Origin: a virus
DNA: 64,000 nt
IMG/VR virus record: IMGVR_UViG_3300028025_000092
Reading direction: 5' to 3' (one strand)
Shown here piece by piece: positions 638 to 22,529 of the stretch. Within the stretch, counting starts at the first letter, position 1. Every line of letters begins with the position of its first letter. Under the pieces are notes generated by a model that was given only the letters and a program-made list of their open reading frames with translations, was not told where the DNA came from and ran no database searches. The position numbers and the translations under genes were made by a program.

Positions 638-3600
638 ATGCCAGGATTATTAATTAAGCAGCCCTTTGGATTAGGACATTTAAATCTAACAAGCAATTAT
701 ACAATATCAGCTTTACAAACAACTGGTATTTATAATATATTTAATTGTACAGCAGGAACGTTCACCGTAACACTTCCTTCAGCAAGTGTGGCTACCCCTG
801 GTTATTATTACACAATAAAAAACTCAGGTTCTGGTGTTATTACTATTAATTCAATAAGCGGAAGTATAGAGGGATTAAGTACAGCAACACTTAATCCCAA
901 TGGTAGTATACAGGCATTTAGTGACGGTACTAACTGGAATATCATGGGTGGAAGTCTTGCGGGCACATCAGGTTCTTCAGGCTCTTCTGGAATTTCAGGT
1001 TCTTCTGGATCCTCTGGAATATCTGGAACAGAAGGAACTTCTGGTACATCGGGGAACAATGGATCATCGGGATCATCGGGTACCTCAGGAGAATCGGGAT
1101 CATCAGGATCGTCAGGAAATAATGGGTCATCAGGATCGTCAGGAACATCAGGGGCTAATGGATCATCAGGATCATCAGGATCCTCTGGATCTAGTGGATC
1201 GGGGGGTTCATCAGGAACTACTGGTACATCGGGGTCTGCAGGATCATCAGGTACAACTGGAACTTCTGGATCTTCGGGATTAACTGGAACCTCCGGTCAA
1301 TCAGGATCATCGGGAAGCACAGGTACTTCAGGATCTTCAGGAACATCGGGTACTTCTGGACAAACAGGTACTTCTGGAACCTCTGGACAAACTGGTGCTT
1401 CTGGTACATCGGGTACTTCAGGACAAACCGGTGCTTCTGGTACATCCGGTACTTCTGGACAAACCGGTGCTTCTGGTACATCCGGTACTTCAGGTACTTC
1501 TCCAACAGGATTAGTTGCTTCTAATTATGTTGTCCAAGGTTACTTATCAACCTCTCAAAGTATTCCTTCGCAGATTGATACGGTAATTCAATTTATTGAT
1601 GATTTCGACCCAAATAACTGGTGGGACGCATCAACATATAGATTCACCCCAACAGTTGCTGGTTACTATAATGTAACTCTTGAGGTTTTATGGCAAAGTG
1701 GTACGACAACTACTAATCAATATAATTCACAAATTCGCAAAAACGGAAATCAAATATTCATTTGGCAAACTCAAATAACCGCAAATACAAATGTTGCTCA
1801 GGGTAATAGTAAAATAATTTACTTGAATGGTTCTAGTGATTATTTAGATTTCACTGGTTATAATGGAGATACTGTTAGTAGAAATATTGAGGGTAGTGCG
1901 AATAGAGGAACAACTTATTTCTCAGCATCTTTAATTGTTGGTGGTGGTACATCAGGTACTTCAGGAACTAATGGAACATCAGGATCTTCAGGGACTTCTG
2001 GTTTAAGTGGTTCTTCAGGAACATCAGGATCTTCTGGACAAAACGGAACATCAGGATCTTCAGGAACTTCTGGGTCAACAGGTACATCGGGTTCTACTGG
2101 ATCTTCCGGAACATCAGGTACCTCTGGACAATCAGGATCTTCAGGAACTTCCGGACAAACAGGTACTTCAGGTACTTCTGGTCAATCTGGTACTTCAGGT
2201 ACTTCTGGTCAATCTGGTACTTCCGGATCAACTGGCACTTCTGGATCAACCGGTACTTCAGGTACTTCTGGTCAATCTGGTACTTCAGGAACTTCCGGAC
2301 AAACAGGTACTTCAGGTAGTTCAGGTTCATCAGGAGCTAATGGTTCTTCAGGTTCAAGCGGAACTTCTGGTTCATCAGGATCAACAGGTTCTTCAGGTTC
2401 AACCGGAACTTCTGGTTCATCGGGATCAACTGGATCGTCAGGATCAACTGGTACCTCGGGTACATCAGGAGTAAGTGGAATTAGTGGTCTTGATGGTACA
2501 TCAGGAACTGCTGGAACATCCGGATCTTCCGGATCTACAGGATCTACAGGAACGTCAGGTAGTTCAGGTTCTTCCGGAACTGCTGGAACATCCGGATCTT
2601 CCGGTACATCGGGGAATTCTGGTACTTCAGGATCATCGGGCACATCGGGGAATTCTGGTACTTCAGGATCATCAGGGAGTTCAGGTACTTCTGGATCATC
2701 AGGAGCTGTTGGAACACCGGGATCTTCGGGAACATCAGGATCATCAGGAGCTGTTGGAACACCGGGATCTTCGGGAACATCAGGATCATCAGGAGCTGTT
2801 GGAACACCCGGATCTTCTGGAACATCCGGATCATCTGGATCATCAGGAAGCACAGGATCGTCTGGATCATCAGGTACATCTGGATCATCAGGTACATCTG
2901 GATCTTCAGGAAGCACAGGATCATCTGGATCATCAGGTACATCTGGATCTTCAGGAAGCACAGGATCATCTGGATCATCAGGTACATCTGGATCTTCAGG
3001 AAGCACAGGATCATCTGGATCATCAGGTACATCAGGATCTTCAGGAAGCACAGGTTCTTCAGGTTCATCAGGGGCTAACGGAGGAAATGGTTCTTCAGGT
3101 TCTTCAGGTTCATCAGGGGCTAACGGAGGAAATGGTTCTTCAGGTTCTTCAGGTTCTTCAGGTTCATCAGGGGCTAACGGAGGAAATGGTTCTTCAGGTT
3201 CTTCAGGTTCTTCAGGGGCTAACGGAGGAAATGGATCTTCAGGTTCTTCAGGTTCTTCAGGGGCTAACGGAGGAAATGGATCTTCAGGAACATCAGGAGC
3301 TAATGGAGCAGCAGGATCTTCCGGAACATCAGGAGCAGGTACAATTAGTGGAACAACAAACTATGTTTCTAAATTTACAGGTTCAACGACAATAGGAAAT
3401 TCACTAATCAGGGATGACGGATCCAATATAGGAATTAACACTGCCCCTGATGGTAGTTATCAAGTTAAGATTGCTACATCTATAAATGATGGAACTCTTG
3501 CATTAGATTCATCAGCAAGTATTAATGCTCTTTATTTCAATAAGAACGGAACTAAACAATTTGAAATTAGCTACGATACTGGAGGCGCAACTAAAATTTT

Positions 3601-4159: not shown

Positions 4160-5440
4160 ATGCCAGGATTATTAATTAAGAAGCCCTTCGGACTTGGTCA
4201 ATTAAATTTAACAGATACCTATGTAATATCGTCTCTACAGACAACCGGTATTTATGACATATTTAATTGTGTATCAGGAACGTTCACAGTAACACTTCCT
4301 TCAGCAAGTGCGGCTACATCCGGCTATTATTATACAATAAAAAACTCAGGGTCTGGTACTATAACAATTGATACACAGGGCGGAAATATAGACGGATTTT
4401 CTACTATCACTTTAAACGCTAAAGGAAGTTTACAGGCATTTAGTGACGGAAGCAACTGGATCGTAATGGGTGGAAGTGTAAGCAGTACTTCAGGTACAGC
4501 AGGAACCTCAGGTCCGTCAGGAACTTCAGGTATATCCGGAACTTCTGGATCGTCAGGATCTTCTGGAACAAGCGGATCTTCTGGCGCATCAGGTTCATCA
4601 GGATCTTCAGGTTCTTCCGGATCGTCAGGTGCCAACGGATCATCAGGATCGTCAGGATCTTCAGGAGCTGCAGGTACTTCAGGTTCATCAGGATCTTCAG
4701 GAACAACAGGATATTCGGGATCTTCAGGATCCTCTGGAACGACAGGATCTTCAGGATCTTCAGGAAGCACAGGAACATCTGGATCCTCGGGTTCTTCTGG
4801 AACCTCAGGAGCTAATGGCGGAAATGGATCATCAGGATCTAGTGGAGCATCCGGTGCTTCCGGAACATCTGGAACATCAGGAGCTAATGGAGGAAATGGA
4901 TCATCAGGATCTAGCGGAGCATCTGGTTCTTCGGGATCTTCCGGATCTTCAGGATCTAGCGGAGCATCTGGTTCTTCGGGATCATCAGGGGCATCTGGAA
5001 CTTCCGGTGCAAGCGGAACCTCAGGAACTGGGTTTAATACTATAACAAGTCCCGAAAACCTCAGGGTTCTTATTTCGAATGGCGGATCTAATACTGCATT
5101 TTGCAACACCAATATTTACGTCGATAATACAAATTCTTATGTTTATGCTAACGCATTCTTTCAAAATTCCAGCAGAAAATTAAAAACAAATATAGAATCT
5201 CTTAACTATTCTGCAATTGATCTTCTTTCTAAAGTTGATGTTGTTAAATTTAATTATCTTAATGATCTTATAAATCCTCATATAGGATTTATTGCAGAGG
5301 ACACGCCAGAAGAGCTTTCGACAAAATCACAAAATGCTATGGATACGAACTCAGTCGTTGGTGTTCTTATTAAAGCAGTACAGGAGCTTTCCGAAGAATT
5401 GAATAGAATTAAGAAATGGCAAGATCGACAAAAGCCTTAA
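4160..5440 (+). CDS. Paralogous Gly-Ser repeat fibre with S74 chaperone domain
   Basis: First ~105 aa very similar to 638-4159 (MPGLLIK.PFGLG.LNLT); SSRKLKTNI...HIGFIAED. Confidence 0.8.
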   Translation: MPGLLIKKPFGLGQLNLTDTYVISSLQTTGIYDIFNCVSGTFTVTLPSASAATSGYYYTIKNSGSGTITIDTQGGNIDGFSTITLNAKGSLQAFSDGSNWIVMGGSVSSTSGTAGTSGPSGTSGISGTSGSSGSSGTSGSSGASGSSGSSGSSGSSGANGSSGSSGSSGAAGTSGSSGSSGTTGYSGSSGSSGTTGSSGSSGSTGTSGSSGSSGTSGANGGNGSSGSSGASGASGTSGTSGANGGNGSSGSSGASGSSGSSGSSGSSGASGSSGSSGASGTSGASGTSGTGFNTITSPENLRVLISNGGSNTAFCNTNIYVDNTNSYVYANAFFQNSSRKLKTNIESLNYSAIDLLSKVDVVKFNYLNDLINPHIGFIAEDTPEELSTKSQNAMDTNSVVGVLIKAVQELSEELNRIKKWQDRQKP

Positions 5441-7983: not shown

Positions 7984-7998
7984 AAATGCATTTTTATT

Positions 7999-8048
7999 GT
8001 AACTTTTTCTTATATTTGGATATAATTTAAATAGTTAAACGATATATA
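7999..8048 (+). promoter_or_regulatory. Stacked promoters for tRNA operon 1 leader (GTAAC-N17-TATAAT, host-type TATATTTG, GATATATA)
   Basis: GTAAC 7999-8003 / TATAAT 8021-8026; TATATTTG 8011-8018; GATATATA 8041-8048; all three motifs recur upstream of other genes. Confidence 0.6.
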
Positions 8049-8055
8049 AATCAAA

Positions 8056-8148
8056 ATGAACAAGAGCTTTAATATATTACCGCTTCATAGCACGTTATTA
8101 TCTTCATCAAGAAGACCGATAACTCCTGCGAAGATCCTAGGTAATTAA
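8056..8148 (+). CDS. Leader peptide of tRNA operon 1 (MNKSFNILPLHSTLLSSSRRPITPAKILGN)
   Basis: 30-codon ORF after an A-rich leader; codons 7-24 all encode amino acids of cluster-1 tRNAs; its 3' end is the antiterminator strand. Confidence 0.8.
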   Translation: MNKSFNILPLHSTLLSSSRRPITPAKILGN

Positions 8149-8173
8149 GAGAAACTTAAATTCATTTTCATCT

Positions 8174-8211
8174 AAAAAGCCTAGATCCTTAAAAAAGATT
8201 TAGGCTTTTTT
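8174..8211 (+). terminator. Attenuator terminator of tRNA operon 1
   Basis: GCCTAGATC/GATTTAGGC 9-bp stem then T6; its 5' strand can instead pair with AAGATCCTAGGT (8131-8142). Confidence 0.8.
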
Positions 8212-8216
8212 GTTGG

Positions 8217-8228
8217 GTTCTTTGACAT
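8217..8228 (+). promoter_or_regulatory. boxA-like antitermination element
   Basis: GTTCTTTGACAT resembles rrn boxA (GCTCTTTAACA); lies between the attenuator and the first tRNA. Confidence 0.55.
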
Positions 8229-8244: not shown

Positions 8245-8329
8245 GGAGAGTTGGCAGAGCGGTCGATTGCGGCAGTCTTGAAAACTGTTGACTGTAAAAG
8301 GTCCCGGGGTTCGAATCCCTGACTCTCCG
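8245..8329 (+). tRNA. tRNA-Ser(TGA)
   Basis: GGAGAGT/ACTCTCC acceptor, GCAGT-CTTGAAA-ACTGT, long variable arm, TTCGAAT. Confidence 0.95.
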
Positions 8330-8334
8330 CAACT

Positions 8335-8407
8335 GCCTCCTTAGCTCAGCTGGTAGAGCGACGCACTTGTAATGCGTAGGTCATTGGTTCGATCCCGATA
8401 GGAGGCT
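8335..8407 (+). tRNA. tRNA-Thr(TGT)
   Basis: GCCTCCT/AGGAGGC, ACGCA-CTTGTAA-TGCGT. Confidence 0.95.
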
Positions 8408-8474
8408 CAACGCTAACGTAAAATACGTACGCTAACATAATATCTGTTAGAATACAAAAGTTCGGTAGCAAGCT

Positions 8475-8572
8475 TATTAGACCCCGCAGAGGCTGGCGCC
8501 ACCAGTATGGACGTAACGTTCATGCCATACTGAAAGCACGCGGAAACGCTGAAATGGTGGTCGGGTCTAATA
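8475..8572 (+). ncRNA. Candidate structured ncRNA (multi-way junction)
   Basis: TATTAGACCC/GGGTCTAATA closing stem; CCACCA/TGGTGG; GTATGG/CCATAC; GCG-GAAA-CGC GNRA hairpin. Confidence 0.6.
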
Positions 8573-8575
8573 CTT

Positions 8576-8665
8576 AGAGAGGTGTCCGAGAGGCTGATGG
8601 AGCACGCTTGGAAAGCGTGTTTACGAGTGATCGTAACAAGGGTTCGAATCCCTTTCTCTCTGCCA
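8576..8665 (+). tRNA. tRNA-Ser(GGA), CCA encoded
   Basis: AGAGAGG/TCTCTCT, CACGC-TTGGAAA-GCGTG, variable arm, GCCA end. Confidence 0.95.
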
Positions 8666-8675
8666 AAAGATATAT

Positions 8676-8796
8676 GCCGGTGTGGCGGAATGAATGATCT
8701 CGAATTCGAATAGAGATTATTAGACGTCCCGTAATTCTAGAAAAGGTGGTGAATCCGAAATGGACACCGTGGAGGTAGCCAGACCTCCCACCGGCA
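8676..8796 (+). ncRNA. tRNA-Leu-like RNA with D-loop hairpin insertion, unpaired anticodon region and non-canonical T-loop
   Basis: GCCGGTG/CACCGGC-A acceptor; TGGCGGAATG...AGACG Leu-type D arm; GGAGG-TAGCCAGA-CCTCC T arm. Confidence 0.7.
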
Positions 8797-8803
8797 CCTT
8801 TTT

Positions 8804-8889
8804 GCCTGGGTGTTGAAATAGGTAGACAAGACAGACTTAAAATCTGTTGGACTGTAAAGTCCGTGCGGGTTCGATTCCCGCCCCAGGTA
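8804..8889 (+). tRNA. tRNA-Leu(TAA)
   Basis: GCCTGGG/CCCAGGT-A, ACAGA-CTTAAAA-TCTGT, variable arm. Confidence 0.95.
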
Positions 8890-8892
8890 CAT

Positions 8893-8978
8893 CCTAATGA
8901 TAGCGTCAAGCCGGATTTTGCGACTTCGTTAGGTCAGATCTGTCCAATAGGAGAGCCGGCTGCGACCCTGGACAGATC
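8893..8978 (+). ncRNA. Candidate twin-hairpin ncRNA with repeated AGCCGG..TGCGAC loop motif
   Basis: CCTAATGA/TCGTTAGG and GATCTGTCCA/TGGACAGATC stems, each enclosing AGCCGG-(n)-TGCGAC. Confidence 0.5.
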
Positions 8979-8987
8979 ACTACATTT

Positions 8988-9061
8988 GGTTCTGTAGCTC
9001 AGCTGGATAGAGCGCCACCCTTCTAAGGTGGATGTCGTTGGTTCGAATCCAACCGGGATCA
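8988..9061 (+). tRNA. tRNA-Arg(TCT)
   Basis: CCACC-CTTCTAA-GGTGG, TTCGAAT. Confidence 0.95.
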
Positions 9062-9064
9062 CAA

Positions 9065-9199
9065 TTAAGGTTGATTGGGGAATGGTGATATGAAATACCT
9101 GGTAGAGGTGGGAAGTTAATATCATCGGAGTTTGAACTACCACTAGTAATGCCAGTTGTAAAAGAGATTGTCCACTGAACCATCTTTCTCTTTCCTTAA
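9065..9199 (+). ncRNA. Candidate structured ncRNA with possible pseudoknot
   Basis: TTAAGG/CCTTAA ends; ATGGT/ACCAT; GATAT/ATATC enclosing ACCT-GGTAG-AGGT; loop GGTAG complementary to CTACC (9137-9141). Confidence 0.45.
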
Positions 9200-9204
9200 A
9201 ATAT

Positions 9205-9278
9205 GTTGGATGTAGCTCAGTTGGCAGAGCACTAGCTTGTGGCGCTAGATGTCGCCGGTTCGATCCCGGTCGTTCAAC
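9205..9278 (+). tRNA. tRNA-His(GTG) with encoded G-1
   Basis: CTAGC-TTGTGGC-GCTAG; G-1:C73 identity pair. Confidence 0.95.
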
Positions 9279-9285
9279 CATTACT

Positions 9286-9362
9286 CGGGTAGTTCGGGAG
9301 TCAGGTCACCCGGCTTGGTTTGGGACCAAGACAACTCGCAAGTTCGAATCTTGCCTACCCGA
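9286..9362 (+). tRNA. tRNA-Pro(TGG)
   Basis: CGGGTAG/CTACCCG-A, CTTGG-TTTGGGA-CCAAG. Confidence 0.93.
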
Positions 9363-9364
9363 CA

Positions 9365-9432
9365 GAAAGATCAAAGAGACCGCTAAATCGAGTTAGTGAA
9401 AATCTACATTCTCTTTGGTCTTTTCGTTTTTT
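9365..9432 (+). terminator. Long hairpin with U-rich tail (terminator or processing site)
   Basis: AAAGATCAAAGAG/CTCTTTGGTCTTT stem followed by T runs. Confidence 0.45.
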
Positions 9433-9450
9433 ATTTTCGATGTTTTACTC

Positions 9451-9458
9451 TATATTTG
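9451..9458 (+). promoter_or_regulatory. Bacteroidota-type -7 promoter element TATATTTG
   Basis: Matches TAnnTTTG, 12 nt upstream of tRNA(CAT). Confidence 0.55.
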
Positions 9459-9470
9459 TAACATCAAAAA

Positions 9471-9544
9471 GGACTTGTAGCTCAGTTGGTTAGAGCAAAT
9501 GACTCATAATCATTAGGTCCCTGGTTCGAGCCCAGGCTGGTCCA
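9471..9544 (+). tRNA. tRNA(CAT), probably Ile2 (lysidine, reads ATA)
   Basis: GG-start acceptor, AATGA-CTCATAA-TCATT, A73; lacks initiator features; elongator Met not excluded. Confidence 0.85.
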
Positions 9545-9552
9545 CAAATTTA

Positions 9553-9634
9553 GGCCCTCTGTTGTAATTGGTAGCCAAGCCAGACTTAGGATCTGGTGTC
9601 GCAAGACGTGAGAGTTCGAGTCTCTCGGGGGTCA
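9553..9634 (+). tRNA. tRNA-Leu(TAG)
   Basis: CCAGA-CTTAGGA-TCTGG, variable arm GTC-GCAA-GAC. Confidence 0.93.
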
Positions 9635-9645
9635 CAACTTTTATT

Positions 9646-11057: not shown

Positions 11058-12029
11058 TTACCTTTGTTTAAATACGATTGAGGTATCTGGTGCAAATAAT
11101 ACCTTTCCGAATGGAGGTTTGTTATGTACCGTAGGACCACAGATAAACCAGAAAGTTTTGTTTGCGTATTTTGGTATTCCGTACTTCTTTGGATCTGGAT
11201 ATTGAGCCAGTGTGTCTGTTAAATAAATAAAGATTGAAGGATTAATTTTAGTCTTTAGAACATTTTTTTTATGAGCGCCATCAACAAATTCAAACGGAGG
11301 AATAAATCCTTTAGCATTACCCCCGGTGGATGCCCATTTTGAAAGATCCGGCATTTTACCCTTTTTAACTATATCAACATTATCGATATCATCGCTACAA
11401 TAAATGATGTAAGTTGTATCAGCATCGAATTGTTTGCAAAGATAAATTACTTCCTTTATGAAAGTATTGGACACTGTTTGAGAAATAGAACCTGACGTGT
11501 CTATAGCAGCTACGATTGTTCTAAGAGTATCCTTTCCAATAGGCTTTTGTCCGTATAGATATTTCCCACCAGCAACAAATCTTCTGTTTGGAAGAACAGT
11601 ATCTTTAGAACTAAATGAATTATCAAAGAATTTTTTTAATTCTTTTTTCCAATTAACTAAAGGCTCTGATGAAGATAATTTTTTTACCATATCTTTAAAT
11701 CTGCTACTATCAGATTTTGCCATCGCCTTTGCTGCTATGTTTTTCCAATCCGGTGTTGCTTTTTTGCCCTTGTAAATTGAAGACTTACCCTTCTTGGTGT
11801 ATTCAGTTGCTTTATTCTTTATGGATTTAGTTTTGTCGGTTACACTTCTTTGTGTGCTAATACCAGGTTTTTCCTGTCCGACCATAGGGATATCTTCCTT
11901 CCCAGTTGAATCCTCTGTAAATTTTGGTTTCCCTCCGCCACCTGGGGTATTACTATCTCCTTTACCTCGTGGGTTTTGAGTTATGGAATTTGGATCTATT
12001 AATGTATATTGTCCTAATTTTACTAGCAT
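11058..12029 (-). CDS. VWA-like (DUF2201 C-terminal) protein
   Basis: VNWKKELK...PNRR...IVAAIDTSGSIS MIDAS, TGG, IYLTD. Confidence 0.8.
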   Translation of the reverse strand: MLVKLGQYTLIDPNSITQNPRGKGDSNTPGGGGKPKFTEDSTGKEDIPMVGQEKPGISTQRSVTDKTKSIKNKATEYTKKGKSSIYKGKKATPDWKNIAAKAMAKSDSSRFKDMVKKLSSSEPLVNWKKELKKFFDNSFSSKDTVLPNRRFVAGGKYLYGQKPIGKDTLRTIVAAIDTSGSISQTVSNTFIKEVIYLCKQFDADTTYIIYCSDDIDNVDIVKKGKMPDLSKWASTGGNAKGFIPPFEFVDGAHKKNVLKTKINPSIFIYLTDTLAQYPDPKKYGIPKYANKTFWFICGPTVHNKPPFGKVLFAPDTSIVFKQR

Positions 12030-12045
12030 TTTCTGTGTTTTAGTA

Positions 12046-12414
12046 TTAAACTTCTATGTCACCATTAGGAAGTACTCTTTTGATTGTGGTTTCTGTCCCG
12101 TCAGATAGTATTACTCTATCACCAACGTTTGGTAATGAAGGTGGCGGGGTTTTATCCCCATCCTCGTCTCCTGGTTTTTCTCCCGGTAAACCTGGTATTG
12201 GTTTTTTTTCACCTAAGCCTGGTAATGGCTTTTCCCCAGGACCCTCGGTTACACCTGTAATAGTTTCTCCCCCACCTCCTCCTCCGTCTCCTTTGCCTTC
12301 CTGAGGATCTACTATAACATCAAATTCGTTTCTTTTTAAAGACATTTGACCCATAGTGCTTTCGTTTACTTCTTTTGATTTTGAAAATTCACCGAATGAA
12401 AATATTTTATTCAT
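12046..12414 (-). CDS. Small protein with N-terminal F-x-E-F..NE motif and C-terminal KOW/SH3-like module
   Basis: MNKIFSFGEF..VNES; NVGDRVILSDG..IKRV..NGDIEV. Confidence 0.65.
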   Translation of the reverse strand: MNKIFSFGEFSKSKEVNESTMGQMSLKRNEFDVIVDPQEGKGDGGGGGGETITGVTEGPGEKPLPGLGEKKPIPGLPGEKPGDEDGDKTPPPSLPNVGDRVILSDGTETTIKRVLPNGDIEV

Positions 12415-12425
12415 GTTTATAATTA

Positions 12426-13394
12426 TTATATCTCGTTAACATCTGCTAAATCAGAAAGATTAGATCTACCAGAGGATGCTGCTCTTTCCATCTTTACTTC
12501 TTCCTCTGTCATTTCATCTATATCATGGGTTCCGTCAGAATTGATGGATGTTATCTTTCCATATCTTCCGTCCTTACTTTTAATAAGATCTCCAACTTTA
12601 GCTTGATGAACTTTAGACCCACCGCCTGCTTCACCACCTCCTGCTTCATCATCTTCTTCACCATCTCCTGCTTCACCATTATCGTCTTCTTCAGATCCAC
12701 CCGGGGTATCATCATATTCATCCTCTCCGGTTTCTTCAAACTCGTCTTCCCCCTCTTCTATTTGTATTTCTAAACCTTCACTAGGTCCAGGAAGGGGAGT
12801 TCCTTCGTCTACGACATTTCCTAGATCCTGATTCTCTTGTTTTGGCAGTGGATTATCTTTGATTATTTCATAAATATCTTCTGCTCTCATTCCAGAATAC
12901 TTTTCCTCTAAAAGACCCATTCTAGATCCATCCGCATTTTTTGGCCATGCAGTTTCGTCTTTAGCTTGTCCAAAATCCTCCCCATCCAAAATAGGATTGA
13001 TGGCATAATCACAAGCATAGTTCCATATTAGTGGATTTCTATCTTGCCTTCTTTTCATATGATCTCCAATACAATGTAGTAATTCGTGTGCCAAAACTAG
13101 TCTTATAGCTGCATCAGTTTGGGATGCCACGAATTCCGGATGAAATATAATTCTTTTACCATCAGTGCACATTGTTTTGGGTCTAATTGCATCAGATCCA
13201 TATATGTCAATGTTTGATAATAGATCCGCATAATCTGCTTTTCGAAGATTCATCCAGATTATTGATCTGTTTATTCTTTTGGTGATTTCGACAGGATCAT
13301 AACCAAGATTGCTTTCGGAATAATCTGCATCTTCATTTTCGTTTATTGATTTAATAAACGACTTAAAAGATCCGTATTTTATGAATTTACTCAT
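12426..13394 (-). CDS. DUF2201-N putative metallopeptidase
   Basis: TMCTDG..I.F.PEF, LAHELLH (HExxH), WNYACDYAIN. Confidence 0.8.
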   Translation of the reverse strand: MSKFIKYGSFKSFIKSINENEDADYSESNLGYDPVEITKRINRSIIWMNLRKADYADLLSNIDIYGSDAIRPKTMCTDGKRIIFHPEFVASQTDAAIRLVLAHELLHCIGDHMKRRQDRNPLIWNYACDYAINPILDGEDFGQAKDETAWPKNADGSRMGLLEEKYSGMRAEDIYEIIKDNPLPKQENQDLGNVVDEGTPLPGPSEGLEIQIEEGEDEFEETGEDEYDDTPGGSEEDDNGEAGDGEEDDEAGGGEAGGGSKVHQAKVGDLIKSKDGRYGKITSINSDGTHDIDEMTEEEVKMERAASSGRSNLSDLADVNEI

Positions 13395-13400
13395 TATCGT

Positions 13401-14969
13401 TTATCTAATTTTAGCCTGCGCAGATGCTGTAACCATTTTTCCCATTTTATCTGCTAAATCATGATCCGGACTGGCACCATCTGTTACAGCAGCCAGTGAT
13501 TCTGGGAATTTATTGTGTATTGATTTCAATAACCAGCTTGATATTTCTGCCTGTCCGTATTGTACAAAATACTCCACGATATTATAAAGAGTTTGAATAT
13601 CATACGTTTTAACTTTCTTAATAACCATTTCGCCGACGCCTCTTAGAATACTCTTGTTTTTTTCTACCCCTGGTATTTTAATCGCTGCTGCTGGATTATT
13701 CATTATAGTCTCAATGTCTCTTTCTGAGATATTTCTTAAAACATCTAGATATGCATTAAAAGCTCCTGCTGCCTCTGGACCTACCTCACTTCTAAAAATA
13801 TTTAGAATTTCCTTACTTGGTACGTCTCTCCAGCTTTTACCCCCTACGAATTTAATCTCGTCTAATAAAATTAAAGCCCCATCTGTCCATGATCTTGGCG
13901 TTGGGAATGTTTTAGACTCCTCCGTTGGATCTAATCTATGGAAAAATTGTTTATTATCGCCTAAAAAGGATACCAGTTCTGGTAAGATTTTTCCTGCCAT
14001 TTTTCCTTCGGTTGAAGATGCCCACTCACCCCATTCTTCCACGGTAGGAACATAATTAACTATAGTGAATCTGTTCGCCAATGCAAAATCAAATTCTGTA
14101 ACATTCGGTGCTTCTGCCTCTCTGTTACCTGCTGCTATAATAACCCATTTTTCCGGAAGTTGATAATCGGGAAGTCTACCCATTTGAACGAATTGCATCA
14201 ATTTATTTAACACGTTTTTATCTGCTCTATTCATTTCATCAAGGAAAATAAATCCTCCCTTTCCTTCCTTTCCATTATCTGTTGGTAGATTTGCGGGTGC
14301 ATTAAATCTAGTAAATCCCTTTCCTTGAGAAGTCATTACCCTTTTCTTTATTACATTTCCCTCAGAATCTTCTGTCTCTATATCCTGGAATGTTGGTTCT
14401 TCTATATTGTGCTGACTTGGTACCCCAGAAAAATCTTCAGGATTCATAAACTGAACATCAAGATTTTTAAAGTCCATTAGCGGAATGCCTAATTCAGTCG
14501 CTACTTCACCAACTATTTGGGTCTTACCAATTCCAGGTGCTCCATAAACGAAAATTGGTTTTGCTCTACCTCCTGATATTTTCGAGGTATAAAGTCTTCT
14601 AATCATATTTTTAAATTCCGCAGTATTTATATCTCTTACACCTTCTCGCGGATTCGGATATTCAAGTCCTACAACATCAGCTACACCTTCCATCATTCCA
14701 CCAGATCCGTGAACTTCTTCTATCTGTTTATCAATTGGACCATTTTCTGGTAAATATAACATAACTGAAGGTTTACCTGCATAAGGTTGCCCTGCTGGGA
14801 TTTTTGGAATATCACCGTTTGTTAGCTTGTCATAGAATGACTTTGCCCATCCGGTTAGTTTGTCGATAACGTTATCCTTAATCCAAGAAAATACACCTTC
14901 GTTAACAGTGTTTCTGTTTACCTGTTGTCTATCTTTGATAAAGGTCTCAAAATTGGAAACTCTTCTCAT
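13401..14969 (-). CDS. MoxR-like AAA+ ATPase
   Basis: Walker A GAPGIGKT, Walker B IFLDE, AAGNR, ALANRF, TPRSW. Confidence 0.9.
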   Translation of the reverse strand: MRRVSNFETFIKDRQQVNRNTVNEGVFSWIKDNVIDKLTGWAKSFYDKLTNGDIPKIPAGQPYAGKPSVMLYLPENGPIDKQIEEVHGSGGMMEGVADVVGLEYPNPREGVRDINTAEFKNMIRRLYTSKISGGRAKPIFVYGAPGIGKTQIVGEVATELGIPLMDFKNLDVQFMNPEDFSGVPSQHNIEEPTFQDIETEDSEGNVIKKRVMTSQGKGFTRFNAPANLPTDNGKEGKGGFIFLDEMNRADKNVLNKLMQFVQMGRLPDYQLPEKWVIIAAGNREAEAPNVTEFDFALANRFTIVNYVPTVEEWGEWASSTEGKMAGKILPELVSFLGDNKQFFHRLDPTEESKTFPTPRSWTDGALILLDEIKFVGGKSWRDVPSKEILNIFRSEVGPEAAGAFNAYLDVLRNISERDIETIMNNPAAAIKIPGVEKNKSILRGVGEMVIKKVKTYDIQTLYNIVEYFVQYGQAEISSWLLKSIHNKFPESLAAVTDGASPDHDLADKMGKMVTASAQAKIR

Positions 14970-15099: not shown

Positions 15100-15127
15100 G
15101 AAACAAACCTCAAAAAAGATATATAAC
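15100..15127 (+). promoter_or_regulatory. Promoter for tRNA operon 2 leader
   Basis: GAAAC 15100-15104, 17-nt spacer, TATAAC; overlaps GATATATA 15118-15125. Confidence 0.6.
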
Positions 15128-15143
15128 ATTCAATCAATCAAAA

Positions 15144-15230
15144 ATGGTAAATCAGAGCACATATAATAATTGCTATCAAATGTCTGAACAAGGCAATGAG
15201 ATGGATTATATGCGCACGGATCTGGTTTAA
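15144..15230 (+). CDS. Leader peptide of tRNA operon 2 (MVNQSTYNNCYQMSEQGNEMDYMRTDLV)
   Basis: 28-codon ORF; 13 of codons 3-22 are N/Q/Y/C/E; last codons plus stop form the antiterminator strand. Confidence 0.8.
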   Translation: MVNQSTYNNCYQMSEQGNEMDYMRTDLV

Positions 15231-15252: not shown

Positions 15253-15284
15253 AAACCCAGATCTTAATAAGGTCTGGGTTTTTT
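15253..15284 (+). terminator. Attenuator terminator of tRNA operon 2
   Basis: AAACCCAGATCTT/AAGGTCTGGGTTT stem plus T tract; alternative 13-bp pairing of GGATCTGGTTTAA (15218-15230) with TTAAACCCAGATCT (15251-15264). Confidence 0.85.
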
Positions 15285-15291
15285 ATTTGAT

Positions 15292-15362
15292 GTCGATTTG
15301 GCCGAGAGGATAGGTAGGGGTCTGCAAAACCTCTCACACAGGTTCGAATCCTGTAGTCGACT
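15292..15362 (+). tRNA. tRNA-Cys(GCA)
   Basis: GTCGATT/AGTCGAC-T, GGGGT-CTGCAAA-ACCTC. Confidence 0.93.
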
Positions 15363-15370
15363 CAGAAATT

Positions 15371-15442
15371 GGGGATGTAGCTCAGTGGTAGAGCGGGTCA
15401 CTGTTAATGACTAGGTCGTAGGTTCGAACCCTTCCATCCCCG
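15371..15442 (+). tRNA. tRNA-Asn(GTT)
   Basis: GGGGATG/CATCCCC-G, GGTCA-CTGTTAA-TGACT. Confidence 0.95.
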
Positions 15443-15448
15443 CAAAAT

Positions 15449-15520
15449 GCTCCTATCGACTAGTGGTTAGGTCACATCCCTTTCACGGATGTAGCACGGG
15501 TTCGAATCCCGTTGGGAGTA
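15449..15520 (+). tRNA. tRNA-Glu(TTC)
   Basis: CATCC-CTTTCAC-GGATG, TTCGAAT. Confidence 0.95.
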
Positions 15521-15528
15521 CAAAAATT

Positions 15529-15610
15529 GGGAGCATCGTCTAGCGGCAATGACAAGTGACTGTAAATCACTCCTCTTTCGAGTTCGCAGGTTCGAGTCCT
15601 GCTGCTCCCA
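15529..15610 (+). tRNA. tRNA-Tyr(GTA)
   Basis: AGTGA-CTGTAAA-TCACT, variable arm. Confidence 0.95.
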
Positions 15611-15617
15611 CTAAAAT

Positions 15618-15688
15618 TGCCCGATGGTGTAACGGTAGCACAACTCCCTTTGACGGAGTTAGTTTAGGTTCGAATCCTAATCGGGCAT
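15618..15688 (+). tRNA. tRNA-Gln(TTG)
   Basis: TGCCCGA/TCGGGCA, ACTCC-CTTTGAC-GGAGT. Confidence 0.95.
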
Positions 15689-15693
15689 CAGAA

Positions 15694-16400: not shown

Positions 16401-17174
16401 ATGTTTAAATATCTTACAAAGGAGGAAGTCCAACAGCTTTCCTTCGATTGGAAATATAAAGGATATTCTATTATAGATCTGATCACGCCAGAAGAAGCCG
16501 ATTTAATATCGGAGAATCTAGATAATTTAAGAAAGAAAAGAAATTCGGTAGATGATAAGTACGGTGAGTATGACCCTTACATGCACCCACACAAAGAATC
16601 CGAGTTAGTGTCTAAGATCCTTGGACATCCTAAAATATTAGAATCCGTGGAGTTTATAATAAATTCGGAGATTCAAGGAATACAAACGTGGGCTTATTTT
16701 AAACCACCCGGGGAACTTGGTAGGGATGCACACCAAGATGCTTTCTATGCTCAAACACAATGGAATAAAACTGCTAATGTTAGTATATCTCTAGATAATA
16801 CCGATGAGTCAAATGGTGGTATTTGGGTTTATGAGGCTTCTCATCTTCTACCAATTTTACCTATAGAGATAGATGAGGAAAGAGCTAAGCTCAATCCAAT
16901 CAGATGGAGGAACGAGAGGGGTAAGGCTTGTGTTATGCCAGAAGGACATAATTTTAGCAAAATAACACCACATGTTAACAAAGGACAAGCAATTTTTTTG
17001 CATTCTCATATAGTTCACGGATCGAATGAGAATAAAAGCAATCGATTCAGAAGATCTATATTGAGTGGATATACTGGAAAGGGATCGCCATTTAGAAGCG
17101 GGGAACACATGAAAAGGGAACCAATCGACGTTTATGAACTAAAATTAAAATATTGGGAGGTAAAAAAACTCTAA
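16401..17174 (+). CDS. PhyH-family Fe(II)/2-oxoglutarate dioxygenase
   Basis: FKPPG..HQD, ISLDN..ESNG, HGS..N.S..R. Confidence 0.85.
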   Translation: MFKYLTKEEVQQLSFDWKYKGYSIIDLITPEEADLISENLDNLRKKRNSVDDKYGEYDPYMHPHKESELVSKILGHPKILESVEFIINSEIQGIQTWAYFKPPGELGRDAHQDAFYAQTQWNKTANVSISLDNTDESNGGIWVYEASHLLPILPIEIDEERAKLNPIRWRNERGKACVMPEGHNFSKITPHVNKGQAIFLHSHIVHGSNENKSNRFRRSILSGYTGKGSPFRSGEHMKREPIDVYELKLKYWEVKKL

Positions 17175-17184
17175 TAGATTTTAC

Positions 17185-18396
17185 ATGAAGCTGATACAAA
17201 CGTTCGTTCCTAATAAGTTTGATCTAAAAAAAGAGAATGATAAAGATATAATCTGGAAGGATTTAATGTATGTTCAAATGCTCAGTGTTCTACTTGCTAA
17301 TAGGGAATATGGGGGTATTTCATTATACACTAATAGAAAAATAAAAAATCAAATATTAGACATAGGTGTTCCCTACACCAATATTGATACCGATATATTA
17401 CAGGACACTACATCCGATTTATTCTGTATACCAAAACTTAGAATATACAAAGAAATAAAGGAGCCATTTGTTCATATAGATACGGATACCCTCGTATACG
17501 ATAGAATAGATTTTTCTAAATATAATGCATCAGTAGTATATTCACATCCTGATCTTAGACCACCAGTTCATAAAAATTGTGACGATAAATTACTTGATAT
17601 CTTTAATAATTATCCATCATTGGGTGATTCTGACTCCTTTTTTAAATCTGCCAAGGTAACATACCTCGATTTATTTAATAAATTAACTAATGAACATTCG
17701 GAATTTAAATTAAATAACATTAGGATAGGGGATATTCCTAATATGAATGTAGTTATCGTTAATGATTATGATAGTTTTAATTTGGCAGCACAAATGTCAC
17801 TAGATCACTATATAAAAAATAAGGATCTAATAGACAATACTAAAAACGGGGAATGTTACATTGAACAGCTTATGATTCATTTAAACCTGATGGAAATAAG
17901 TCAAAAATACAGGGAAGAGGTAGGATTGAAACAAACATTCATTCTTAAAGATTCACCTCTCATGCTTGATGCTAATTTTGGAGCCAACTTAGATAGTATA
18001 GAATTTCCCTTCACTATGATACACAATTCACATAAAGATTCTGAAATAGATGAAACAATTCTTATTAATGGTGTATTATATTCAAAGAAAATGGAATATC
18101 ACGAGCATTACGGTAGAATAACTAGAATTAACACGACGGAGGACATTGTAAAACTCTTCGATTTTAATTTCTATGGTCTTTCTCATCTTTCCTTTTATAA
18201 ATGGTCTGAAATTTTTCAGGCAATAGTAATAGGGTATATTATAAAAAACTTTGGTGAAGAATATGTTAGAAATATTTATGAATATTACAAAACAATCTAT
18301 CCGTCGTTATATAATCTTCCTCCATTATCTAAAGGCGAAATATTATACCAAAAATTGACAGGATTTAAATTTGAAAGGATAAAAGGTTTGATCTGA
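17185..18396 (+). CDS. Putative glycosyltransferase (DUF6734-like)
   Basis: ISLYTN...PKLRIY...EPFVHIDTD (DxD), IEQ motif. Confidence 0.55.
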   Translation: MKLIQTFVPNKFDLKKENDKDIIWKDLMYVQMLSVLLANREYGGISLYTNRKIKNQILDIGVPYTNIDTDILQDTTSDLFCIPKLRIYKEIKEPFVHIDTDTLVYDRIDFSKYNASVVYSHPDLRPPVHKNCDDKLLDIFNNYPSLGDSDSFFKSAKVTYLDLFNKLTNEHSEFKLNNIRIGDIPNMNVVIVNDYDSFNLAAQMSLDHYIKNKDLIDNTKNGECYIEQLMIHLNLMEISQKYREEVGLKQTFILKDSPLMLDANFGANLDSIEFPFTMIHNSHKDSEIDETILINGVLYSKKMEYHEHYGRITRINTTEDIVKLFDFNFYGLSHLSFYKWSEIFQAIVIGYIIKNFGEEYVRNIYEYYKTIYPSLYNLPPLSKGEILYQKLTGFKFERIKGLI

Positions 18397-18404
18397 ATAA
18401 AAAT

Positions 18405-18477
18405 GCGGGAGTAGCTCATTTGGTAGAGCGATAGCCTTCCAAGCTATAGGTGGCCGGTTCGAGCCCGGTCTCCCGCT
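18405..18477 (+). tRNA. tRNA-Gly(TCC)
   Basis: GCGGGAG/CTCCCGC-T, ATAGC-CTTCCAA-GCTAT. Confidence 0.95.
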
Positions 18478-18574
18478 CACACTAAACCAGAATATGCATA
18501 ATAAACTATTCCGGTTTATTTATCAAAAATAGGTTTATTAGGTTACTGTAATATCGAAAATAAAATATAATAAA

Positions 18575-19173: not shown

Positions 19174-19776
19174 TTATTTATGATCCTTTGGACTGCAAAT
19201 CATTTCTAATTGATCCCATTTAAATTTTGGTTTTTCGTTTAGAAAAACAAAGCATCTCCATTTTTTCTGAGATTCAAAATAAATATGTTTTTGTAGATAT
19301 GAAGGAATGGCTGCATTAGTAGCAACTCTTTTTACCGGATTATCAAAAAATATTTTAATTAAAACTGTTAAATTTTCGGTGTCGTCCCATTTTCTAATCT
19401 GCTCTTCCAGCATTCTCCATTCCCCTCTATTTAAATATTGATTCTGCATTATACAATTAAGATAAGAAAAGGTTTGCTTTAAATTTTCCATGTTATCTGA
19501 AAATGTAGCGGCGGGTGCTCCGTGTCCTTTGTCATAAACATTCTTTATATAATCTTCACCATCGGATGTTTTAATTGTCTTCTCCGGGTAAAAATCCATT
19601 GATCCCCTATTAACATTAGTTGGTCTATTAGTAGATCTGTACTTAATCCATAAAGGTTGCTCTAATTTTTGAGAATAGAGTACTTCAAAAACCTGATTTT
19701 TTATTCTGACTGTATCCTGTGCTTTTAATCCAATTGATAGTGTAAGAATCAATAATAGCGTTAGAAATTTCTTCAT
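19174..19776 (-). CDS. Secreted DNA/RNA non-specific (beta-beta-alpha-Me) endonuclease
   Basis: Signal peptide MKKFLTLLLILTLSIGLKA; YDKGH (DRGH-like), TF..LN..Q...NRG.W..LE. Confidence 0.85.
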   Translation of the reverse strand: MKKFLTLLLILTLSIGLKAQDTVRIKNQVFEVLYSQKLEQPLWIKYRSTNRPTNVNRGSMDFYPEKTIKTSDGEDYIKNVYDKGHGAPAATFSDNMENLKQTFSYLNCIMQNQYLNRGEWRMLEEQIRKWDDTENLTVLIKIFFDNPVKRVATNAAIPSYLQKHIYFESQKKWRCFVFLNEKPKFKWDQLEMICSPKDHK

Positions 19777-21182
19777 TTTTTTAATTTTAATTTATTAATC
19801 GGAACATTTATATGTTTACCGAAGGGAATCCTACGATCAGTAGTTATTGCCCATATTATTTTTTTGTGCCAATTTGGTTTTTCAGGATCTTCGGCACCTC
19901 CATCCGTGAAATATATCATGCATGCTAGATCTTTGCCTTTTTTAATTAGGTTATTTTCCACCCATTTTATTGGGGGATTAAAACCCTCTTCGTTTCCTCC
20001 AGTGGATTTTTGTTTTTCCAAATCCAGCAATTGACCTGGCGATTTTAACCTGTCAATATCACCAGAAGGTGGCTCTATCCCATCGCTACAATAGATAATA
20101 TATATTTCTTTTGGGAGAAAACACTTTAATATGCTTCTAGATTCCTCTATAAAAGCATTGTACTCCTCTTTCCCTATACTTCCTGAGGTATCTATTGCTA
20201 TTACTATTGTACCAAGACCCTCCATTCTTCCTTTAAGCCCAGGAAGGTAAAGATCTTGAAAGATGTGTCTCCTGTTTGGTATCTTATACACAGAAAAATC
20301 ATCATCCATCTCTGAGGTGTATCTTTGTAGTGTTTTTTTCCAATCTACTTGTGGATTCATCAGATTGTCTATAAATTTTCTTAAAGCTGGGGATGTTCCG
20401 CCATTACCCGTTCCCTTATTAGACGATCTTTCTGTTATTTCCCTTATTTTTCTAGTCACCTCTCTTTTCTTTAATGTGTTATCTTTCAGAGGCTGGAATA
20501 ATTTTTTATTTTGACTACCACCAGAATCATCCCATCCTTTATCCGATGAACCTTTTTTATCCGAACTACCTTCGCCGGAATCCAAAACCTCGGTTTCTTT
20601 GTTCGTTTTTTTATCTAAGTTCTGTTTTTTATTTTCTTCTAAGGAACCCTCAGATTTTAATAAATCCCCTATTATAACCTCGTTGATATAGCTTTCATTT
20701 ATTTCCCCGGGATTTAAAACGTCACAATAAGACCTGTATTCTACTACTTGTTGGATTTTACCACTGAGTATATCATCATATATTTCTTCAGCTGAGCCAT
20801 TTATAAATCTCGAATCTTGGTATTCTTTAGGAAGAAAAGATTTACAAATTCCATCAAGATATTGATGGGAAATTATATCACAGGCCAGATTCCACTCGTG
20901 GAATAGATTATCATTCTTTCTATCAAAATGTTGTAATGCTAGGTGTATTATTCCCTGATTTATTGACCATGTTATCTCTTCGTCACTTATCTCCAAACAA
21001 TTTAGAGGGTTAAATATAAAAGCTGTACCGTCCGTCGAAAAAAATTGGCAATCATTGGACGAAGCTACAGGGATCTCAGAAAGAAAATTTCCAAAAAATC
21101 CTCCCTTCATTAAAATCTTGGAAACACATCTTTTTATCTTGATGACAGATTTTTCGTAGTTTTCTTTATCCGATATATTCAT
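19773..21182 (-). CDS. Fused DUF2201 metallopeptidase-like + VWA protein (degenerate HExxH)
   Basis: STDG..F.FNP, NQGIIH in place of HExxH, WNLACD, VDWK, PNRR, IDTSGS. Confidence 0.8.
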   Translation of the reverse strand: MNISDKENYEKSVIKIKRCVSKILMKGGFFGNFLSEIPVASSNDCQFFSTDGTAFIFNPLNCLEISDEEITWSINQGIIHLALQHFDRKNDNLFHEWNLACDIISHQYLDGICKSFLPKEYQDSRFINGSAEEIYDDILSGKIQQVVEYRSYCDVLNPGEINESYINEVIIGDLLKSEGSLEENKKQNLDKKTNKETEVLDSGEGSSDKKGSSDKGWDDSGGSQNKKLFQPLKDNTLKKREVTRKIREITERSSNKGTGNGGTSPALRKFIDNLMNPQVDWKKTLQRYTSEMDDDFSVYKIPNRRHIFQDLYLPGLKGRMEGLGTIVIAIDTSGSIGKEEYNAFIEESRSILKCFLPKEIYIIYCSDGIEPPSGDIDRLKSPGQLLDLEKQKSTGGNEEGFNPPIKWVENNLIKKGKDLACMIYFTDGGAEDPEKPNWHKKIIWAITTDRRIPFGKHINVPINKLKLKK

Positions 21183-21192
21183 TTAATGGCTA

Positions 21193-22443
21193 TTATACTT
21201 CCCTCATGAAATTTCTATACTTGGATACGAAAGGAGTAACATTTTTTTCCAGGGTTACGTCGCTAAGATAATCCTTAACCTCTGGGTGTGTTCTTTTAAT
21301 TAAATTTAAACCGCTCATCGCTATTTCGCCGGAATCTAGATTTATCAGATATTCAACAAAATTTATAAATTCTTCTTTCGATATAACTTTTCCATTTTTG
21401 TATTTGGATGTCATATACATTACAGCATACGACTTTCTAAGATCATAATTTCCGGAATCTAAAACGGGAAGAGATAGATCTGAATTTTTAGGATCGCTAA
21501 ATATTCTAGAGATTCTTTCAACTGGCCAAACTTTGGTTGTTTCTATAAAATCTGTTATAATCGAAGATACTTTTTTGCCGACATGCTTATTAAATATCTT
21601 ATTGATTTCTTTCTCCGATAGAATTTCATCTTTTGCTATTTTTTTTCTTTCGGAGTATTCCCTTGCTGCATAATCCCAGGATCTTGGCGTTACCCCCATT
21701 GTCGTGTCGAGTGTCGATATGGATTCAGGAGAGATGTAAAAATATTCTTGCATGAGTTCTACAAAAGAAACAACATCATCGTCGAGATCTCTGTTTCTTG
21801 CCCACTCTACCCAGCTAGATGGATCGGAGATAAGATTAATTTGTGCGAATCTATTTGCCAAAGCAAAACTCATCGGTTTTATAGATCCACCTGGTTCATC
21901 CTCCTGTCTATTTGCTGCGGCAACTATTAGCCATTTGTCTGGGATCTTATAATTTGCTCCTGCTATCTCCCGATCAAAAATAACTTTAAGCATTGCTGCT
22001 TGAACCGATGGATGTGCTCTATTGATCTCGTCCAAAAATATTATTCCGCCCTTCCCCTCAACCTTTGTTTTGTTTCCTGTATTGTCGATAATTTCTTTAT
22101 CTCCATTATCAATAGGCCATATTCTTGGAAGATAATTGACCGATCTTTTTATATCTGGTATTTTCTCGTCTGGGAGTATTCCAGGAAGTCCTACAACATC
22201 AGTCGGTTCCATAAGGCTAAGAATAACCTCGATCACAGGAACTTCTTTATTTTCTAGTCCAAAAGATTTTACTATTGAGGTTTTACCTATTCCAGGTGCT
22301 CCCCATATTAGCAGGGGTCTTCCTGATTCAGGATTTCTAAAATGATATTCTAGCTCATCTATGAGCTCCTTGGGGGTAAAATTATCAATTTCGGGGTCCT
22401 GAGTCTTTTGTGCAATTTTCCAAACTGGATCTAATTCATTCAT
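21193..22443 (-). CDS. MoxR-like AAA+ ATPase (second copy)
   Basis: GAPGIGKT, IFLDE, ALANRF, TPRSW; start revised to MNELDP after GATATATA (22450-22457). Confidence 0.9.
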   Translation of the reverse strand: MNELDPVWKIAQKTQDPEIDNFTPKELIDELEYHFRNPESGRPLLIWGAPGIGKTSIVKSFGLENKEVPVIEVILSLMEPTDVVGLPGILPDEKIPDIKRSVNYLPRIWPIDNGDKEIIDNTGNKTKVEGKGGIIFLDEINRAHPSVQAAMLKVIFDREIAGANYKIPDKWLIVAAANRQEDEPGGSIKPMSFALANRFAQINLISDPSSWVEWARNRDLDDDVVSFVELMQEYFYISPESISTLDTTMGVTPRSWDYAAREYSERKKIAKDEILSEKEINKIFNKHVGKKVSSIITDFIETTKVWPVERISRIFSDPKNSDLSLPVLDSGNYDLRKSYAVMYMTSKYKNGKVISKEEFINFVEYLINLDSGEIAMSGLNLIKRTHPEVKDYLSDVTLEKNVTPFVSKYRNFMREV

Positions 22444-22529
22444 TATTTTTATATATCGAAAAATAAAACCGCTCAATAATGAAATATTATTAAGGTTTAG
22501 GGATAGAAATAAAGAAATATCACACAACA

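Follow-up and report, generated by a model that had tools for sequence, protein, structure and literature searches.

A candidate leader-peptide attenuator ahead of a tRNA array in a large uncultured phage, with similar units in its relatives

The tRNA arrays and the elements in front of them

The window, meaning the whole stretch of 64,000 nucleotides that was analysed, has a GC content of 36% and belongs to a large uncultured myovirus encoding collagen-repeat tail fibres, a tail sheath, a large terminase and a DnaB-type helicase. The large terminase is 31–38% identical to those of uncultured huge phages, Sphingomonas phage PAU, Tenacibaculum and Flavobacterium phages and Lak phages, and the nearest relatives of the tRNA(cat) of the window are found in crAss-like and Cellulophaga phages. 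Taken together, these two lines of relationship make a Bacteroidota host likely, though unproven.

ARAGORN and Rfam identify 15 tRNA genes in the window, all on the plus strand: nine at 8245–9635, five at 15292–15689 and a single tRNA-Gly at 18405. Beyond tRNAs, Rfam detected no family in the window, either at the gathering threshold or at E-values up to 1. The first group is separated by very stable structured spacers, with folding energies of -49 (8409–8575), -45 (8666–8803), -32 (8891–8987) and -29 kcal/mol (9063–9205). These spacers match no Rfam family, nor does ARAGORN recognise in them a tRNA, with or without an intron, or a tmRNA. The spacer at 8666–8803 is closed by a perfect 7-bp acceptor-like stem followed by ACC, and its 23-nt core is kept in distant phages, where it was used as a search anchor.

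The solitary tRNA-Gly(tcc) is part of a conserved trio (16401–18478 in the window, also present in L002, L003, L004 and L014), which consists of a PhyH-type dioxygenase gene, a DUF6734 gene and the tRNA gene. The DUF6734 gene is 71–82% identical among the relatives; the tRNA gene begins 3–16 nt past its stop codon and has neither a leader nor a terminator of its own. A MoxR-like AAA ATPase gene occurs twice on the minus strand of the window (11058–14969 and 19773–22530), beside genes for DUF2201 metallopeptidase/VWA-like domains; two separate ORFs make up the DUF2201 part of the first copy.

Each of the two larger tRNA groups is preceded by a unit with the same order of elements: promoter-like sites, a short ORF, a segment in its last codons that can pair with the terminator (region 2), a hairpin with a T-run, and finally the tRNA genes (Table 1). 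In unit 1, the ORF is the only open frame on the plus strand between the upstream gene, which ends at 7983, and the first tRNA.

Table 1. Features of the two units and of the tRNA genes behind them; positions are those of the window.
Feature	Position	Strand	Basis or remark
Promoter-like region	7997–8026	+	Sigma-70-type match, 10/12; includes TATATTTG at 8011–8018, a Bacteroidota -7 type motif
GATATATAA motif	8041–8049	+	7 nt 5' of the leader 1 start codon; invariant in close relatives, variant in the L069 lineage
GATATATAA copies	8041, 15118, 27080, 44035, 59632	+	
GATATATAA copies	14987, 22449	-	
Leader ORF 1, 30 codons	8056–8148	+	ORF listing; conserved in 5 lineages, pN/pS 0.07–0.54
Putative regulatory codon run, codons 7–24, all I/L/P/H/S/T/R	8074–8127	+	Codon reading, run scan, alignment
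Region 1, pairs with 8140–8145 in the untranslated leader fold	8076–8081	+	Minimum-energy fold; putative anti-antiterminator
Region 2, antiterminator strand, last sense codons of leader 1	8132–8143	+	Ends 3 nt 5' of the stop codon
Segment complementary to the start-codon region 8053–8060	8161–8168	+	Helix 2, 92.5% paired, no covariation
Intrinsic terminator of unit 1 (regions 3 and 4)	8174–8211	+	Stem 8174–8187 with 8197–8210; T-run 8206–8211; stem kept in relatives
GTTCTTTGA box between terminator and first tRNA	8217–8225	+	Conserved even in distant lineages
tRNA array 1, proposed to be gated	8245–9363	+	Ser(tga), Thr(tgt), Ser(gga), Leu(taa), Arg(tct), His(gtg), Pro(tgg); structured spacers between genes
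Hairpin 9365–9424, T-rich tract, TATATTTG at 9451–9458	9365–9458	+	Folding and motif search
tRNA(cat), putative Ile2, and tRNA-Leu(tag)	9471–9635	+	ARAGORN; two CAT kinds in relatives
Leader ORF 2, 28 codons	15144–15230	+	13 of codons 3–22 are N, Q, Y, E or C
Region 2 of putative attenuator 2, pairs with terminator 5' arm 15256–15265	15217–15226	+	-12.5 kcal/mol, reached by 0.4% of shuffles
Intrinsic terminator of putative attenuator 2	15253–15284	+	tRNA-Cys starts 7 nt past the T-run
tRNA array 2, proposed to be gated	15292–15689	+	Cys, Asn, Glu, Tyr, Gln

The -10-like hexamer of the promoter-like region is kept in all relatives. Within the window, neither the sigma-70-type motif nor TATATTTG (TAnnTTTG) is enriched, and the promoter assignment is consequently tentative. 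The motif GATATATAA, with seven copies in the window against 1.9 expected, lies 7–20 nt before both leader start codons (the copy of leader 2 occupies 15118–15126) and 18 nt before the gene at 13401–14969. This placement suggests that it may be a phage-specific promoter giving rise to very short 5' UTRs. The GTTCTTTGA box, which is neither recurrent nor enriched within the window, may be an element of the pre-tRNA 5' leader.

The terminator of unit 1 folds with -16 kcal/mol (z = -4.1). Its T-run is separated from the first tRNA by 33 nt, and the corresponding distance in unit 2 is that given in Table 1; no promoter-like site is listed between the T-run and the first tRNA in either unit of the window. 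Gaps of this length leave no room for a promoter, and both arrays must therefore be transcribed through the terminators. The competing pairing was described in the first-pass annotation as a 12-nt match between the end of the leader and the 5' strand of the terminator. Such a pairing does exist, but it comprises 9 bp with one bulge, formed by 8133–8135 and 8137–8142 with 8179–8187. Its energy of -9.7 kcal/mol is equalled by 3% of shuffles, and the terminator that it would have to displace lies between -10 and -16 kcal/mol. In the fold predicted for the untranslated leader, region 1 instead holds region 2, and the segment at 8161–8168 covers the start-codon region; this segment may shut off repeated initiation on leader 1.

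Codon composition of the two leaders

Codons 7–24 of leader 1 read exactly as the first-pass annotation had listed them, and all 18 encode amino acids of the set served by the tRNA genes at 8245–9635. At the level of codon boxes, 17 of the 18 can be read by the anticodons of this cluster; the exception, AGC, interrupts the run. The chance estimate attached to the run, (31/61)^18 or about 5e-6, is to be understood as an amino-acid-level figure. When it is recalculated with the phage's own amino-acid usage, in which the set has a frequency of 0.398, it falls to about 6e-8 per position. Scanning all six frames of the 64-kb window for runs of at least 18 set codons yields only one other case, a repeat in a non-coding frame at 12617–12679.

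A further claim had been that the match extends to individual isoacceptors. The codons in question are indeed present, but their choice is what the codon bias of the phage would already lead one to expect: in its genes ATA accounts for 43% of Ile codons, AGA for 77% of Arg codons and TTA for 41% of Leu codons. Because this bias already favours ATA, AGA and TTA, the isoacceptor match adds nothing to it, and the signal of leader 1 resides in the set of amino acids rather than in the choice of isoacceptor.

The length of the run depends in part on the identity of the tRNA(cat) at 9471, since it shortens to 14 codons when this tRNA is not counted as Ile2. The first-pass annotation had taken it as Ile2, whereas ARAGORN calls it Met. 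A BLAST comparison with phage records returned neighbours labelled mostly as tRNA-Met and settles neither identity. The relatives carry two distinct kinds of tRNA(cat), exemplified by L013 5414–5488 and L011 6730–6804 as against 9471–9545 in the window. The kind found in cluster 1 accompanies leaders that contain ATA and lack internal ATG codons, and the kind found in cluster 2 accompanies leaders with internal ATG and no ATA. This association suggests that the tRNA(cat) at 9471 is Ile2. The window lacks the cluster-2 kind, a tRNA with a weak 1:72 pair, yet its leader 2 retains three internal ATG codons.

The same tRNA, together with tRNA-Leu(tag), had also been flagged as possibly having a promoter of its own. 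Both the hairpin at 9365–9424 and the TATATTTG motif behind it are present, and the region may be a second transcription start for these two genes. Its elements occur separately in relatives, with L004 retaining the hairpin without the motif and L002 the motif without the hairpin.

Among the open 20-codon windows of the 64 kb, leader 2 ranks first for the set Asn/Gln/Tyr/Glu/Cys. In a matrix of z-scores, each leader is depleted in the amino-acid set of the other.

One alternative is that the match in leader 1 is a compositional coincidence, in which a low-complexity ORF rich in Ser, Thr, Leu and Pro occupies by chance an AT-rich spacer ahead of tRNA genes that serve common amino acids. Ranked by its overall set fraction, leader 1 is only tenth among the 238 small ORFs of the window, its isoacceptor match is no more than codon bias predicts, and the region was chosen post hoc. 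The near uniqueness of the run length and the agreement of a second unit with a disjoint set of amino acids both speak against coincidence. The comparison with relatives described below, where substitutions preserve the set and the permutation and Fisher tests across lineages link leaders to their own blocks, renders this explanation very improbable.

Comparison with close and distant relatives

Relatives were found by means of a flanking protein, the conserved DUF6734 marker protein, one metagenome scan and the conserved inter-tRNA element. When patterns derived from the leaders were run against viral contigs in two additional scans, nothing came up except chance matches and lineages that were already known. 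Leader 1 is kept in four close lineages (L002, L003, L004 and the L069 group) and leader 2 in three of them (L002, L004 and the L069 group). The DNA from leader to terminator is about 89% identical across lineages, while the flanking protein is just 50–54% identical. The pN/pS values of leader 1 across five lineages (Table 1) indicate coding constraint, and the window differs from L002 by eight synonymous and two non-synonymous substitutions.

The pattern of these substitutions follows the codon run. At each of the six variable positions within codons 7–24, the residue stays inside the group Ser/Thr/Leu/His/Pro; positions outside the run vary freely. All five lineages share AGA AGA CCG ATA (8110–8121) unchanged. 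Where tRNA-Leu(taa) is missing, as it is in two lineages, TCA TCA stands in place of TTA TTA; the odd AGC/AGT codon corresponds to a Ser(gct) tRNA found in L002 and L069. Leader 2 behaves similarly: its Cys codon occurs only where tRNA-Cys is present (both present in two lineages, both absent in two), and two Lys codons appear solely in the one lineage with tRNA-Lys. The tracking is imperfect. The window has no Ser(gct) tRNA to go with its AGC, L003 retains Thr codons although it lacks tRNA-Thr, and the Met, Asp and Gln codons of leader 2 persist regardless of whether the matching tRNA is there.

The RNA elements are conserved as well. In five sequences, 95.6% of the cells in the pairing between region 2 and the terminator are paired, with one compensatory pair, and the helix of region 1 is about 95% paired, with one compensatory pair at 8079:8142 (A-U, G-C, G-U). 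The counts of compensatory changes in the five close sequences, one each in the 1:2 and 2:3 helices, do not exceed those of shuffles. As the sequences are few and close, the helices are taken as conserved rather than proven. In the L069 lineage, two pairs of the terminator stem have changed on both sides and region 2 has changed too (CTA to CTG, CCTAG to CCCAG); L004 carries the G-U intermediate of this change.

More distant lineages contain units of the same kind before other tRNA blocks. L036 has two, the first preceding an Ile-Phe-Lys-Trp-Arg-Cys-His-Asp-Ser-Glu block and the second a Leu-Arg-Pro-Asn-Leu-Tyr-Met-Thr-Gly-Gln-Ser block. In the same lineage, a tRNA-like sequence with a T arm, a CCA-like end and a possible TGC anticodon lies at 3229–3299, directly 5' of tRNA-Ile(gat); it is not called by ARAGORN and may be a degenerate or unusual tRNA-Ala. 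L070 has one unit ahead of a block of 13 tRNAs, and 27 of the 29 residues of its leader belong to the set of that block, with all 13 types represented and Phe, Lys, Cys and Ser missing. The L070 leader and the first L036 leader are homologous: their ends are common and their middles differ in line with their own tRNA blocks.

A layout of this type also occurs in a cultivated phage, Cellulophaga phage phi4:1 (L117, KC821632.1), where positions 3428–3558 precede a Pro-Glu-Gln-His-Leu-Leu-Arg block. The leader has 22 codons, of which 11 consecutive ones specify residues of the Pro/Glu/Gln/His/Leu/Arg set, and the terminator abuts tRNA-Pro. At 4352–4532, a second small ORF and a terminator stand before the next tRNA block of phi4:1. 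Residues of that block's amino-acid set are frequent in the annotated gp075, which shares its upstream sequence with the first ORF but has no ATG start.

Across all 12 leader-block pairs that were examined, the leader covers every amino-acid type of its own block. With the leaders reduced to five types, the pairing of each with its own block is the best of 120 permutations. Amino acids that have a tRNA in the block are present in the leader in 45 of 45 cases, as against 24 of 50 for those that have none (Fisher 8e-10).

These numbers also bear on the possibility that the terminators are ordinary, partly leaky terminators or insulators, or that they are overcome by a phage protein acting as antiterminator. 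Leak-through or other promoters would then account for tRNA expression, and the ORF would encode an unrelated, conserved micro-protein. Distant lineages do have a promoter-like TATATTTG between the terminator and the first tRNA, as the tRNA(cat) of the window has before it, and some tRNA blocks of relatives occur without any leader, both of which would fit such an arrangement. This possibility is nevertheless distinctly unlikely, since it leaves unexplained why five unrelated leaders each contain all amino acids of their own block, why the presence of Cys and Lys codons goes together with that of the tRNA genes, and why the last codons of the ORF copy the 3' arm of the terminator.

For 11 of the 12 leaders, the strongest pairing available to the terminator 5' arm is with the last codons of the ORF, at an energy reached by 0–5.6% of shuffles. 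Counted from the first base of the stop codon, the 3' end of this partner, region 2, falls somewhere from 14 nt upstream to 1 nt downstream. No convincing antiterminator was found in L036_A, a distant leader. The placement of region 2 bears on a further alternative, in which translation of the leader matters but follows a non-classical logic: stalling might expose the nascent RNA to Rho or a nuclease and so reduce tRNA output, or the leader might do no more than load a ribosome that pushes the polymerase through the terminator. The coding constraint on the ORF and its match to the tRNA set fit any mechanism coupled to translation, and unit 1 has an antiterminator of only moderate stability. 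A region 2 placed just before or at the stop codon is nevertheless what classical attenuation specifically needs, and region 2 changes together with the terminator arm. Moreover, the feed-forward behaviour that would result, with fewer tRNAs made when they are scarce, has no obvious benefit. A non-classical logic is thus considered unlikely.

Proposed mechanism and relation to known systems

The first-pass annotation had read unit 1 as a leader-peptide attenuator, and the present analysis supports this reading: candidates for all architectural elements are there and are kept in relatives, and the composition of the leader tracks the tRNA set. We assign a probability of roughly 0.7 to the interpretation that unit 1 is a ribosome-mediated transcription attenuator that controls the phage tRNA array by sensing the supply of those same tRNAs. 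This assignment is made from sequence comparison, from which we infer the start site, the stalling and the direction of the switch as follows.

Transcription would start just 5' of 8056, and the 30-codon leader would be translated immediately. When charged Ile2, Leu, Pro, His, Ser, Thr or Arg tRNA is scarce, decoding would be slow between 8074 and about 8118, and the ribosome would stall 5' of region 2. Region 2 would then be free to pair with the 5' arm of the terminator (8179–8187), which would keep the terminator from forming and let the polymerase enter the array at 8245. When decoding is fast, the ribosome would reach the stop codon (8146) and cover region 2, so that the terminator forms and the transcript ends near 8211. 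If the leader is not translated at all, region 1 would hold region 2, and termination would likewise follow. Effective stalls would be expected at about codons 7–21. The last three codons of the run would be ineffective because a ribosome stalled there is too near to region 2 to leave it free. The outcome would be a negative feedback in which tRNAs are made on demand. Possible occasions for it are early infection of a host poor in tRNAs for A-ending codons, or a later stage after depletion of the host tRNA pool.

The layout is that of the enterobacterial amino-acid operon attenuators, in which a short translated ORF with regulatory codons is combined with mutually exclusive antiterminator and terminator hairpins. 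Among these, the trpL, hisL, pheL and leuL leaders respond to a single amino acid, the ilvGMEDA and ilvBN leaders to Ile, Leu and Val, and the thr leader to Thr and Ile. The multivalent ilv and thr leaders resemble the phage units, where one leader would likewise sense several amino acids. In other respects they differ. The phage units would regulate tRNAs instead of biosynthetic enzymes, so that the molecule sensed would be the product. Their leaders name up to 7–13 amino acids once or a few times each, whereas enterobacterial leaders use one to three in long runs. Region 2 lies inside the ORF in the phage units and after it in the enterobacterial attenuators. Finally, the phage probably infects a member of the Bacteroidota, unlike the carriers of the enterobacterial leaders.

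Attenuation of a component of the translation apparatus has a precedent in E. coli pheST, where a leader-peptide attenuator controls phenylalanyl-tRNA synthetase. The pheST case differs from the phage units in that its target is a cellular gene for a synthetase and only one amino acid is involved. T-box riboswitches also sense tRNA status and operate a terminator/antiterminator switch before translation-related genes. A T-box binds uncharged tRNA directly and needs neither ribosome nor ORF, whereas the phage units possess an ORF. A T-box identity was considered for the units of the window and rejected, since neither the gathering threshold nor an E-value limit of 1 produced an Rfam match. The tRNA cluster of T4 and other phage arrays resemble the window in being clustered, in carrying tRNAs for preferred codons, in being co-transcribed and processed, and in having small stable RNAs between the genes. 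We know of no leader-peptide control described for them. Full-text literature searches retrieved leader-peptide attenuation for amino-acid operons and related cases, and none for tRNA genes or phage tRNA clusters. An older paper on E. coli pheV may describe an attenuator-like leader before a tRNA gene.

To our knowledge, the regulation of phage-carried tRNA genes is essentially unknown, and the reason why phages carry them is debated. An attenuator whose product is the very molecule that it senses would represent a novel circuit in tRNA gene regulation, and would mean that phages gauge decoding speed codon by codon. With up to 13 amino acids covered, the leaders would constitute a compact natural sensor of tRNA availability, and they would predict which tRNAs are limiting in the host. 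Cellulophaga phage phi4:1 provides a cultivated experimental system for this idea.

Taken beyond the window, the comparisons make it reasonably probable that giant phages of Bacteroidota possess a modular family of such attenuators, in which the leader is a 'checklist' of the amino acids of its tRNA block and evolves with the gain and loss of tRNA genes. If this is true, the phage would maintain homeostasis of its own tRNA pool by a direct reading by the ribosome. In addition, such leaders could sense the depletion of host tRNAs, whether caused by host defences or by phage nucleases, and switch the phage tRNAs on in response.
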